Source: Alphaproteobacteria bacterium (GTDB lineage: Bacteria > Pseudomonadota > Alphaproteobacteria > GM7ARS4 > G965262615). Taken from it: a stretch of 64,000 bases of DNA. The notes under the pieces are model-generated. The model was not told the DNA's origin. It was given only the letters and a program-made list of their open reading frames with translations, and searched no databases. Position 1 is the first letter of the stretch. Every line of letters starts with the position of its first letter. Where the stretch lies: NCBI GenBank assembly GCA_965262615.1, contig OZ253545.1, positions 864,001 to 928,000 on the forward strand. The letters run 5' to 3'. A program made the position numbers and the translations under genes. Below, in pieces: positions 2,054-2,720 of this stretch.

Positions 2054-2133
2054 GTGTCGGGCTTCTCGCCGAATACAAAACCGTCAGGAAATAAGCGAGA
2101 GCCCTCGTCTGTGGCTTGTGCAAAGCCCGATAC
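2054..2133 (+). ncRNA. Structured RNA element copy 1 (C4/CI antisense RNA-like three-way junction)
   Basis: Closing stem GTGTCGGGCTT/AAGCCCGATAC; inner stem CTCGC/GCGAG around GAATACAA...GGAAATA; hairpin AGCC-loop-GGCT. Confidence 0.55.
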
Positions 2134-2136
2134 TTC

Positions 2137-2166
2137 TTGTCAGTGATGCGTGGAATTTGGTATAAC
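2137..2166 (+). promoter_or_regulatory. Putative sigma70 promoter for RNA copy 2 and the YHYH gene
   Basis: TTGTCA (2137-2142), 18 nt spacer, TG-N-TATAAC (2161-2166). Confidence 0.6.
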
Positions 2167-2217
2167 TGTCCTTACACAGCTTACATGCAGGCTCGACTTT
2201 TAGGGTTTTTACTCTAG

Positions 2218-2315
2218 GTCGGGCTTCTCACTGAATACAATACTGACTCGCAATTTTATTGTGAGAAGGGAATAGGTGGGAGCCTTACCTGCGTGTGGCT
2301 TGTGTAAAGCCCGAC
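2218..2315 (+). ncRNA. Structured RNA element copy 2 (C4/CI antisense RNA-like), with flanking complementary target sites
   Basis: GTCGGGCTT/AAGCCCGAC stem; compensatory inner stem CTCAC/GTGGG; extra hairpin 2247-2265; loop CCTGCGTGT and junction TGTGTAA are complementary to 2183-2191, 2172-2178 and 2338-2344. Confidence 0.62.
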
Positions 2316-2357
2316 ACCTTATGGGTGTCTCACCAAAACACGCAAGGAGGTAACGCT

Positions 2358-2534
2358 ATGAACAAGACGCTTTTGATGAGTGTTTTTGGCGCGTTCCTTT
2401 TGACATCCCCTGTTTCATCACACGATGTTGCCGCATGGTCGTCTTTCACGAGTGACCATGTCGCGCACAGTGGCGGAACGGATCGCAAGGGGTGTCATTG
2501 GGATCGCAAGAAGGATGTCTATCACTGCCACTAA
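2358..2534 (+). CDS. Small secreted YHYH-type protein (58 aa)
   Basis: GGAGG RBS at 2346-2350; signal-peptide-like N-terminus; C-terminal HSGGTDRKGCHWDRKKDVYHCH matches the HSGG.D..GCH.....YHCH pattern. Confidence 0.8.
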   Translation: MNKTLLMSVFGAFLLTSPVSSHDVAAWSSFTSDHVAHSGGTDRKGCHWDRKKDVYHCH

Positions 2535-2542
2535 AAACACGC

Positions 2543-2575
2543 GCCCTCTTCCTCGCGTGATGCGAGGGGGAGGGT
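2543..2575 (+). terminator. GC-rich hairpin, likely terminator after the YHYH gene
   Basis: GCCCTCTTCCTCGC / GCGAGGGGGAGGGT 14-bp stem (with G-U pairs), 5-nt loop; weak U tract. Confidence 0.55.
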
Positions 2576-2590
2576 TGTGTCATGATTTCT

Positions 2591-2625
2591 TGGCTTTTGT
2601 TGTGCTGGAAGCCGTGAGAGAATAG
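2591..2625 (+). repeat. Diverged duplicate of the acpS 3' end (a shorter copy lies at 2020-2040)
   Basis: TGGCTTTTGTTGTGCTGGAAGCCGTGA vs acpS 1114-1140 TGGCTTTTGTCGTGCTGGAAGCGGTGA, 25/27 identical; encodes AFVVLEAV. Confidence 0.85.
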
Positions 2626-2637
2626 AACATCTGTTTT

Positions 2638-2720
2638 GTGTCGGGCTTCTCGCCGAATACAAGACCATAAGGAAATAAGCGAGAGCCTTACCTGTGTGTG
2701 GCTTGTGTAAAGCCCGACAC
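2638..2720 (+). ncRNA. Structured RNA element copy 3 (C4/CI antisense RNA-like)
   Basis: Perfect 11-bp closing stem GTGTCGGGCTT/AAGCCCGACAC; 5' half like copy 1, 3' loop and junction like copy 2. Confidence 0.55.

Follow-up and report, generated by a model that had tools for sequence, protein, structure and literature searches.

C4-like candidate leader cassettes built on a divergent relative of sRNA-Xcc1 in an alphaproteobacterial genome

Some phage antisense RNAs are produced from the very transcripts that they control. The CI RNA of phage P4 (seqA - seqB - seqC) is released by processing from the leader of its own target operon, is complementary to sites both upstream and downstream of itself, and acts mainly via premature transcription termination. 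Rho-dependent polarity is also known for the C4 RNA of phages P1 and P7, on which an RCCA-like tail helps RNase P. RNase P excises C4 from the leader; the b' segment of C4 occludes the ribosome-binding site (RBS), and its a' segment adds specificity (PMC5320573). A large structured set of such molecules, the Group 1 C4-like small RNAs (sRNAs) of Acinetobacter baumannii, occurs within one genome, differs mainly in the target-recognition region and is apparently processed from longer transcripts (PMC5320573). We describe here a structured RNA element that is present in three copies, G1, G2 and G3, within a 64,000-nucleotide (nt) stretch of alphaproteobacterial DNA (contig OZ253545.1 of assembly GCA_965262615.1, positions 864,001-928,000 of the forward strand; hereafter the window), and in many more copies elsewhere in the same genome, which is a single contig of 1.54 Mb. 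G2 lies in the leader of a gene for a small YHYH-type protein, and its surroundings follow the layout of the phage C4 system.

The catalogued RNA family that lies nearest to these elements is sRNA-Xcc1 (RF02221), which Chen et al. 2011, going by their title, reportedly described as a trans-acting sRNA. In Xanthomonas it is seen as a separate RNA species of ~88-100 nt (PMC2996969). Its discovery was in an integron cassette of Xanthomonas campestris, and it is located upstream of symE (10.1101/2025.06.18.660453). Tandem arrays and positions ahead of small accessory genes are reported as well: a Xylella island has five copies (PMC12189769), and in APSE phages the RNA precedes an ORF6N gene (10.1101/2020.03.17.996009). 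The available portions of these four sources treat sRNA-Xcc1 as trans-acting and do not describe complements flanking the RNA upstream or at the RBS, although such complements may be stated elsewhere.

A first-pass annotation of the window, made from its letters alone, had described three elements with a shared closing stem, a compensating inner stem, an internal loop and an AGCC/GGCT hairpin, and our reading and alignment reproduced this description almost letter for letter. The closing stem, P1, comprises 9 bp common to the three copies (GTCGGGCTT / AAGCCCGA(C/T)). The inner stem, P2, is CTCGC/GCGAG in G1 and G3 and CTCAC/GTGGG in G2, which constitutes a compensating difference. The internal loop reads GAATACAA...G(A/G)AATA in DNA letters (GAAUACAA / G(A/G)AAUA as RNA) and is followed by the AGCC-loop-GGCT hairpin, designated P4, a weak hairpin with a loop of 9-14 nt. 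A further short helix, P3 (ACC...GG), carries a 22-nt insert in G2, and a 7-nt single-stranded junction precedes the 3' arm of P1 in each of the three copies.

Further copies were sought with RF02221, which marked 16 places in the genome at E<=1 (best score 41.2 bits), and with a motif scan, which added six. A covariance model, R1, was then built from an alignment (A3) of these 22 copies and used to search the whole genome, where it recovered all 22 of the full copies and a single partial one, with no other match at E<=1. The count of three is thus correct for the locus, whereas the genome total is far larger, and the amplification that had been suggested goes well beyond three copies. The copies are spread over 12 loci (A to L) at a density of ~14 per Mb, and seven of these loci are tandem arrays of 2-4 copies spaced 157-275 nt apart (the partial copy of locus K being counted).

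The fold is preserved throughout this set. Across the 22 copies, 90.8% of cells are paired (P1, 99.4%; P2, 96.9%), compared with only 30-56% in controls with slid partners. The covariation that had been proposed from three copies is clear among 22: both sides have changed in 15 of 21 pairs, and the covariation score was reached by none of 500 column shuffles. Within P1 and P2 there are 49 G.U cells against 3 A.C cells, a bias seen on this strand only, which indicates that the fold is formed by RNA of this strand. Pairwise identity has a median of 58% and exceeds 90% in just one of 231 pairs. An old, diverged and covarying family of this kind points to a selected RNA fold on this strand, not to a recently spread DNA repeat. 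P3 inserts reach ~45 nt in this genome, whereas the AAUACAA/GRAAUA internal loop (2233-2240 and 2268-2273 in G2) is invariant in all 22 copies though the surrounding stems vary, and it is found also in the Rfam consensus of sRNA-Xcc1. Could this loop be a protein-binding site or a tertiary motif? We raise this as a question only.

Table 1. Positions in the window of the RNA copies, their associated sites and the neighboring features.
Feature	Position	Strand	Basis or remark
Upstream open reading frame (ORF)	750-1148	+	ORF list
Low-GC two-gene insert	1145-1926	-	GC 0.38-0.44 vs ~0.56 in flanks
101-amino-acid (aa) partner ORF	1145-1450	-	only weak SLATT-like hits below cut-off
Panacea-domain antitoxin gene	1447-1926	-	PF13274, 68 bits
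Partial copy of upstream ORF 3' end	2018-2040	+	directly before G1 (alignment)
G1	2056-2131	+	R1 73.5 bits; RF02221 37.6 bits; no own promoter, no upstream complement; loop CCCTCGTCTGT
Promoter-like TTGTCA-18-TATAAC	2137-2166	+	preceded by TGG (extended -10 type)
a1b1-like site	2172-2193	+	20-nt near-complement of G2 loop and 3' junction: 15 Watson-Crick, 4 G.U, 1 mismatch
G2	2218-2315	+	R1 80.1 bits; in YHYH gene leader; b' loop 2288-2296, a' junction 2301-2307
Hairpin GACACC-TTAT-GGGTGTC	2313-2329	+	uses last 3 nt of closing stem (folds)
a2b2-like target over Shine-Dalgarno	2338-2353	+	ACACGCA (2338-2344) and AGGTAA pair with UUACCU|GCGUGU of G2
58-aa YHYH-type ORF	2358-2534	+	NF033223 YHYH_alt 37 bits vs cut-off 30; C-terminal domain
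GC-rich hairpin CCCTCTTCCTCGC / GCGAGGGGGAGGG	2544-2574	+	3' of YHYH ORF; not called as terminator
Junction repeats	2580-2625	+	convergent-gene 3' end copy 2580-2598 overlaps second upstream-ORF 3' end copy 2593-2625
G3	2640-2718	+	R1 81.3 bits; RF02221 41.2 bits; no own promoter
Convergent 136-aa ORF	2732-3142	-	membrane protein by translation, no family hit; bounds locus

The leader of the YHYH gene contains all of the sites that the first-pass annotation had placed around G2, and each was found where it had been reported: the promoter-like pair, which occurs once in the window against 0.01 expected, the two upstream complements TTACACA (2172-2178) and ACATGCAGG (2183-2191), the downstream complement ACACGCA, and the start codon at 2358. 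The duplex between G2 and its RBS has a 3-nt bulge on the target side (2345-2347) and a predicted energy of -22 kcal/mol (RNAduplex), and G2 was the best of eight RNAs tested against its own RBS-side window. Two mutually exclusive arrangements emerge from folding. In the minimum-energy fold of the leader from ~2172 onward (-57.7 kcal/mol), 2172-2193 pairs with 2288-2307, that is, with b' and a', P1 is opened and the RBS is unpaired; when P1 is forced, the energy is -47.8 kcal/mol. When the leader is folded without the upstream site, the P1-P3 form appears and b' pairs with ACACGCAAGGAGGUAA in the RBS region. The alternative hairpins that had been predicted to sequester the strands of the closing stem, at 2313-2329 and at ~2189-2198 with the 5' arm of that stem, also appear in these folds.

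In order to compare the copies, the duplex energy of the 3' domain of each RNA (P4 plus junction) with its own -45..-1 window was computed, and the RNAs were permuted among windows 20000 times. Short windows were chosen since flanks of 170 nt are confounded by tandem neighbors and by the long 3' domains of copies B, C2 and K2, which were left unclassed. The summed cognate energy of the 22 copies was -465 kcal/mol against a permuted mean of -317.5 (standard deviation 17.3; z -8.5), a value that none of the 20000 permutations reached, and the cognate RNA was the best partner for 9 of the 22 windows. Removal of the near-duplicate copy I left z at -8.4. This signal has a visible counterpart in 11 promoter-bearing copies (A, C1, D2, F2, G2, H, I, K3, L1, L2 and L3), each of which has a near-perfect upstream complement of 8-21 nt that ends 4-26 nt before P1 and whose sequence shifts from copy to copy along with the loop. 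The upstream duplexes contain 10 G.U and no A.C oppositions when mismatches are scored symmetrically, and 13 against 3 with a milder penalty. G.U pairs with almost no A.C show that selection has acted on this pairing as RNA, and speak against a DNA inverted repeat.

The downstream side was tested in the same manner with the window +11..+80 after the RNA (20000 permutations). All 22 copies together gave z -3.3 (21/20000). The eight promoter-bearing copies that are followed by an ORF gave z -4.75 (0/20000), with the cognate RNA ranked first in five and second in three; this subset was picked after the upstream data had been seen, so more weight should be given to the all-copy figure. The match spans the Shine-Dalgarno sequence (ACCTAAGGAG in H and I, GAAAGGAG in D2, TCCAGCAGAGG in A, and ACACGCA-AGG-AGGTAA in G2), and in A, D2, G2, H, I, F2 and L3 the distance from P1 to the start codon is nearly fixed, at 41-48 nt. 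Each a1b1-like site is in turn preceded by a -35/-10 pair of the form TTG(T/A)nn-17/18-TAnnnT, and the promoter boxes are partly homologous among paralogs, as with TTGATTTTTATCGC in both F2 and L. The repeated unit is therefore not the RNA by itself; it is promoter, upstream site, RNA and RBS site together. A tight hairpin in which 5 nt or more of the P1 3' arm pair with the stretch immediately 3' of the RNA is present in 13 of the 22 copies. All 11 promoter-bearing copies have a hairpin at this position, that of G2 being partial (3 nt). Such hairpins were considered as intrinsic terminators, and this was rejected: their tails have at most 3-4 U, and a generic scan finds no terminator in 1900-2800. 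Since a proper U-tract is missing, we do not call them terminators.

Among the promoterless copies, the 3' domain of G3 equals that of G2 bar one base and pairs with the G2 upstream site at -27.2 kcal/mol, while for the upstream window of G1 the cognate RNA ranks only 19th of 22. When the promoterless copies were compared with all 22 loci, only G3 on the sites of G2 and K4 on the upstream site of K3 stood out; G1, F1 and D1 had no convincing partner among these loci. Duplex energies therefore agree with the earlier observation that the loop of the third copy suits the sites of the second and that of the first does not. The suggestion that the copies form a bank of trans-acting antisense RNAs is compatible with this pattern, and we take it no further than that.

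R1 was also applied to other genomes. Of 150 other genomes from this class, 15 had 1-5 copies each; three genomes of the same order were searched and had no copy. Because R1 is biased towards the present genome, copy counts elsewhere are lower bounds. After three short-flanked hits and four with near-identical 3' domains had been removed from the 38 obtained, 31 non-redundant copies from the 15 genomes remained. Their upstream complementarity is strong (z -14.8; cognate RNA first for 19 of 31; 0/20000 permutations), and a downstream signal is present as well (z -5.55; 0/20000). At locus L029, an 18-nt perfect complement of loop and junction ends 9 nt before the ATG of a lipoprotein gene. At L034 and L038, paralogs within one genome, loop and upstream site have changed in concert, and their pairing includes three G.U pairs. 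Two loop bases are swapped between the tandem copies L031 and L039 (CTTTTGTTAG and CTTGTTTTAG), and both the upstream site (ACAAAAG and AAACAAG) and the RBS-side site (CTAACAAAAG and CTAAAACAGG) have followed the swap. The three-site layout that the first-pass annotation had proposed for G2 alone thus holds there and recurs, with compensating sequences, at the 11 promoter-bearing paralogs and among the 31 copies, and the loop-target covariation in homologs, whose absence that annotation had named as a reason to abandon the proposal, is present.

Affiliation of the RNA was examined with Rfam models. At gathering scores the whole window yields two tRNAs only. In a permissive search of 1900-2800, sRNA-Xcc1 was the nearest family, with G3 and G1 both below its gathering cut-off of 53 bits (Table 1) and with alignments spanning model positions 1-87; G2 had no RF02221 match in this interval even at E<=10. 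The link to this family runs through another genome, G017, whose copies are matched by R1 at 35-39 bits. Two of them, both at locus L031 (L031 itself and its tandem neighbor L036), pass the RF02221 cut-off at 57.9 and 55.8 bits, and their detection by both models ties the present family to sRNA-Xcc1. Shared features include the 9-bp closing stem, the inner stem, the AUACAA...GAAUA loop, the small hairpin, the second hairpin with a variable loop, and the junction, which has 6 nt in Rfam. The present copies are unlike sRNA-Xcc1 in their scores below the cut-off, their P3 inserts of up to ~45 nt and their number, 22 in 1.54 Mb as compared with 1-5 in each of the 15 other genomes that R1 marked.

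The arrangement of the sites is that of C4. In the phage P1 record, the annotated order is promoter P1c4, a1, b1, c4 RNA (48343-48419), a2, b2 and icd (start 48470), and the same series of promoter, a1, b1, RNA, a2, b2 over the RBS and gene describes P1/P7 C4 (RF01695, RF03163; clan CL00128) and our cassettes. In both RNAs, a closing stem encloses a structural hairpin, a second hairpin whose variable loop has ~12 nt, and, on the 3' side, ~7 nt of single-stranded junction, and the distance from the end of the RNA to the start codon is 51 nt in phage P1 (c4 to icd) and 41-48 nt here. They differ in that the structural arm holds a conserved internal loop here and a UUCG hairpin in C4, in that the upstream site lies 4-26 nt before the RNA here and 67-88 nt before it in phage P1, and in that the genes concerned encode envelope or secreted proteins instead of icd/ant and have no phage context. 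The A. baumannii Group 1 set is comparable as a large structured set in one genome that varies mainly in the target-recognition region, and is a precedent for amplification; those RNAs match the Rfam C4 motif, which the present copies do not, and most copies here are leaders directly before a gene with a matching RBS site (PMC5320573).

On this basis, each promoter-bearing copy is probably a self-contained C4-like riboregulatory leader cassette, with its address in the loop and junction and shut-off of the RBS as its output. Such a cassette consists, in order, of a putative sigma-70-type promoter, an a1b1-like site, an RNA of 80-115 nt, a small hairpin over the P1 3' arm, an a2b2-like site and the start codon; the RNA comprises P1, P2, the invariant internal loop, the variable P3, the weak P4 with loop b', and the 3' junction a'. 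The variable loop and junction would serve as the address. In the full-length leader, the address would pair with the upstream site and be hidden, the RBS would be open and the transcript translatable, a masked fold that the hairpin over the P1 3' arm would stabilize. If the RNA folded on itself, or were cut out by RNase P as C4 is, it would pair with the RBS region of the same, a sister or a later transcript and turn translation off. The outcome would be negative autoregulation, as in phage P1 c4-icd-ant. The upstream site would act as an internal anti-antisense or, as in phage P4, as a second target. Under this scheme, G2 would be the cassette of the YHYH gene; G3, promoterless and with the address of G2 one base off, could add repression in trans if transcribed; and G1, promoterless too, would carry a different address. 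The sequences themselves show the structure and its covariation, the G.U excess on one strand, copy-specific complementarity at three sites in this and other genomes, and the fixed start-codon spacing; that the cassettes are transcribed and processed, and which way and how strongly they regulate, is our inference.

Several observations weigh against this reading. The models for C4, c4-a1b1 and isrK, with which the first-pass annotation had proposed to compare the elements, have no match in 1900-2800 even at E<=10; the family that came nearest, sRNA-Xcc1, had not been named in it. The same models detect the phage P1 record used as a positive control (C4, 68.8 bits; c4-a1b1, 51 bits), and the sRNA-Xcc1 model in turn has no match to P1 c4. 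As neither direction gives a covariance-model match, the resemblance to C4 concerns layout, and no homology is detectable. C4 has nothing that corresponds to the invariant internal loop, and the RCCA-like tail is not conserved after P1 in these copies. Downstream complementarity is weaker than upstream complementarity: in G2 the a2 half is poor, so that the downstream match rests on the b' side, and in other genomes the cognate RNA is first for only 5 of 31 downstream windows. Eight of the 22 copies (G1, G3, F1, D1, K4, J1, J2 and E) have no cognate upstream site in their -45..-1 windows. Finally, a generic promoter scan makes no call at G2, because the -10 element ends in C. We therefore place the RNA outside the C4 family, as one that would work like C4 but descends from the sRNA-Xcc1 side as a divergent relative.

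The main rival is a cis-only bistable leader, comparable to an attenuator or a riboswitch, in which a factor at the invariant loop would pick the fold and no processed or trans-acting RNA would be made. The alternative pairing in the minimum-energy fold of the G2 leader is what such a switch would produce, as are the hairpin over the P1 3' arm in 13 of 22 copies, with all 11 promoter-bearing copies among those that have one, and an internal loop that never varies across the 22 copies although the stems do. The eight copies that lack promoter and upstream site keep the full fold, however, which better suits a free-standing RNA; hairpins followed by at most 3-4 U are poor intrinsic terminators; and no ligand or protein candidate is known. 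In addition, sRNA-Xcc1 is a discrete RNA of ~88-100 nt in Xanthomonas (PMC2996969). We consider the cis-only switch unlikely, while acknowledging that the present data do not separate it from the C4-type model, which is the most economical of the explanations.

The local history of the locus bears on a second rival, and it shows considerable rearrangement. The last 21-33 nt of the upstream ORF (1117-1148), whose product we take to be holo-ACP synthase-like from its translation, are repeated before G1 (2018-2040) and before G3 (2593-2625), and the 3' end of the convergent ORF is duplicated at 2580-2598 and 2732-2749. Contigs of runs X5 (13 kb) and X4 join 2598 to 2754, so that 2599-2753 is missing and those strains are without G3. 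One contig of run X6 joins 1006 to 2763 via 177 other letters, a form that lacks both the insert and all RNA copies; a second one leads from the end of a G1-like element, by way of 29 letters, to 2348, leaving a single RNA directly before the YHYH gene. These 29 letters hold a partial complement of the G1 loop, which is only a hint, as the loop of that strain is not visible in the contig. Flank duplications and contig variants together indicate that the three copies arose by repeated insertion and duplication at the end of the upstream ORF and are not a designed triplet.

Such rearrangement could suggest a DNA repeat, whether a miniature inverted-repeat transposable element (MITE), a repetitive extragenic palindrome (REP) or a recombination site such as an integron attC, whose hairpin would serve transposition or recombination. 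Many dispersed and often tandem copies, a locus that differs among strains (2599-2753 skipped; 1006 joined to 2763), duplicated 3' ends of both neighbor genes at the junctions, and the first discovery of sRNA-Xcc1 in an integron cassette (10.1101/2025.06.18.660453) would all fit. We nevertheless judge it very improbable. The first-pass annotation had held that many dispersed copies would point to a MITE/REP-like element, and such copies do exist; they are old and diverged (median identity 58%, with more than 90% in 1 of 231 pairs), their stems show compensatory changes and an excess of G.U over A.C (49 vs 3) on one strand only, and promoter, fixed start-codon distance and RBS complementarity are kept cassette by cassette, none of which is MITE/REP-like. 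By the usual consensus, attC core sites are not at the ends, no attC scan having been made. The genome also has only two tyrosine recombinase genes (PF00589; 306 and 310 aa), neither of which lies near the RNA loci.

The remaining possibility, ordinary trans-acting sRNA genes with distant targets whose flanking complements are a by-product of duplication, would accord with the title-level description of sRNA-Xcc1 attributed to Chen et al. 2011 and with the existence of promoterless copies, and is scarcely credible, because duplication gives direct repeats and not reverse complements, and the complements contain G.U with almost no A.C and co-vary among paralogs and across genomes.

Returning to the C4-like cassette, what is unusual here is the scale (22 copies, ~14 per Mb), the location on a non-phage chromosome before envelope genes, and addresses that have visibly been re-coded within tandem arrays. 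The RNA is a divergent, unannotated branch of a catalogued family, and its mechanism, a reading supported in its logic, would be that of a textbook phage system. The catalogued and mechanistically vague sRNA-Xcc1 would thereby be linked to the well-understood phage C4 design through an argument built on natural compensatory variation at three sites, the predictions of which can be tested by loop and target swaps. Such cassettes could leave phages and multiply in the chromosome as portable 'promoter plus lock' units before envelope genes. A bolder picture, which we offer tentatively and regard as rather doubtful, is that of a reduced genome with a self-diversifying bank of at least 11 orthogonal RNA address codes, in which tandem duplication of cassettes, joint re-coding of loop, upstream lock and RBS lock, shuffling among strains at housekeeping gene ends, and promoterless copies acting in trans would make up an RNA-only network, without phage or protein repressor, by which expression of surface and secreted proteins is set and made to differ from strain to strain. 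If the cassettes were only neutral relics, 22 unannotated RNA genes or leaders would still have been annotated.

The tandem arrays with diverged addresses (L1-L3, K2-K4 and G1-G3) would offer a natural series for the evolution of orthogonal RNA-RNA specificity. At L027 (G000:C1:1463501-1465800), a 274-nt unit is tandem-triplicated, with RNA copies at 744-857, 1018-1131 and 1293-1404 of that locus. The unit consists of promoter, upstream site, RNA, RBS and approximately the first 20 codons of an SNase-like gene, and the three units carry three different pairs of loop and upstream site, a natural series of re-coded addresses. The partial copy, in L026 (G000:C1:1390370-1390452, minus strand), is without the 3' half of the core (no GRAAUA and no P2 3' arm), retains the closing stem and an extra hairpin common to copy K2, and has the appearance of a deletion product.

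No phage or toxin theme is found among the genes behind the promoter-bearing copies, and no phage genes were seen in 1-6000 of the window, in keeping with the view that the switch is detached from any phage. The gene behind G2 had been called YHYH-type, and the NF033223 score bears this out (Table 1); the 58-aa product has no Pfam hit, and its N-terminal hydrophobic stretch is read as a putative signal peptide. Lipoprotein-like ORFs without a family hit follow A, D2, H and I, and a DUF6804 membrane protein follows F2. The ORF behind L3 is weakly SNase-like (19.9 bits, below the 21-bit cut-off) and has an N-terminal hydrophobic stretch. Very short ORFs of 16-17 aa, with starts MTP.../MTL..., follow C1 (L019, ~803-856) and K3 (L026, ~2980-3030, minus strand). 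They lie at the usual distance of 41-43 nt, have matching RBS sites and are succeeded by another RNA copy. Leader peptides are one possible identity for them; the other is that truncation of cargo genes left them behind.

The region 900-3300 differs between related populations (runs X4, X5 and X6) and is a hot spot for insertions where a housekeeping gene ends. A Panacea (PF13274) antitoxin gene with a small partner ORF lies directly upstream of 3 of the 12 RNA loci, namely G (window 1145-1926), F (L007, 1615-2636, minus strand) and H (L013, 467-1422, plus strand), and at locus F the first RNA copy begins 7 nt past the stop codon of the partner ORF.

Other repeats are present in the window. 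Six tandem copies of a unit of ~820-920 bp (60-97% identical), with similar ATG... starts, occupy 19330-24500 and represent a local gene-family expansion. Three tandem 81-nt repeats (95-99% identical) lie at 56646-56900 and three tandem 42-nt repeats (90-94%) at 38495-38629; as the periods of both are multiples of three, these may be in-frame coding repeats.

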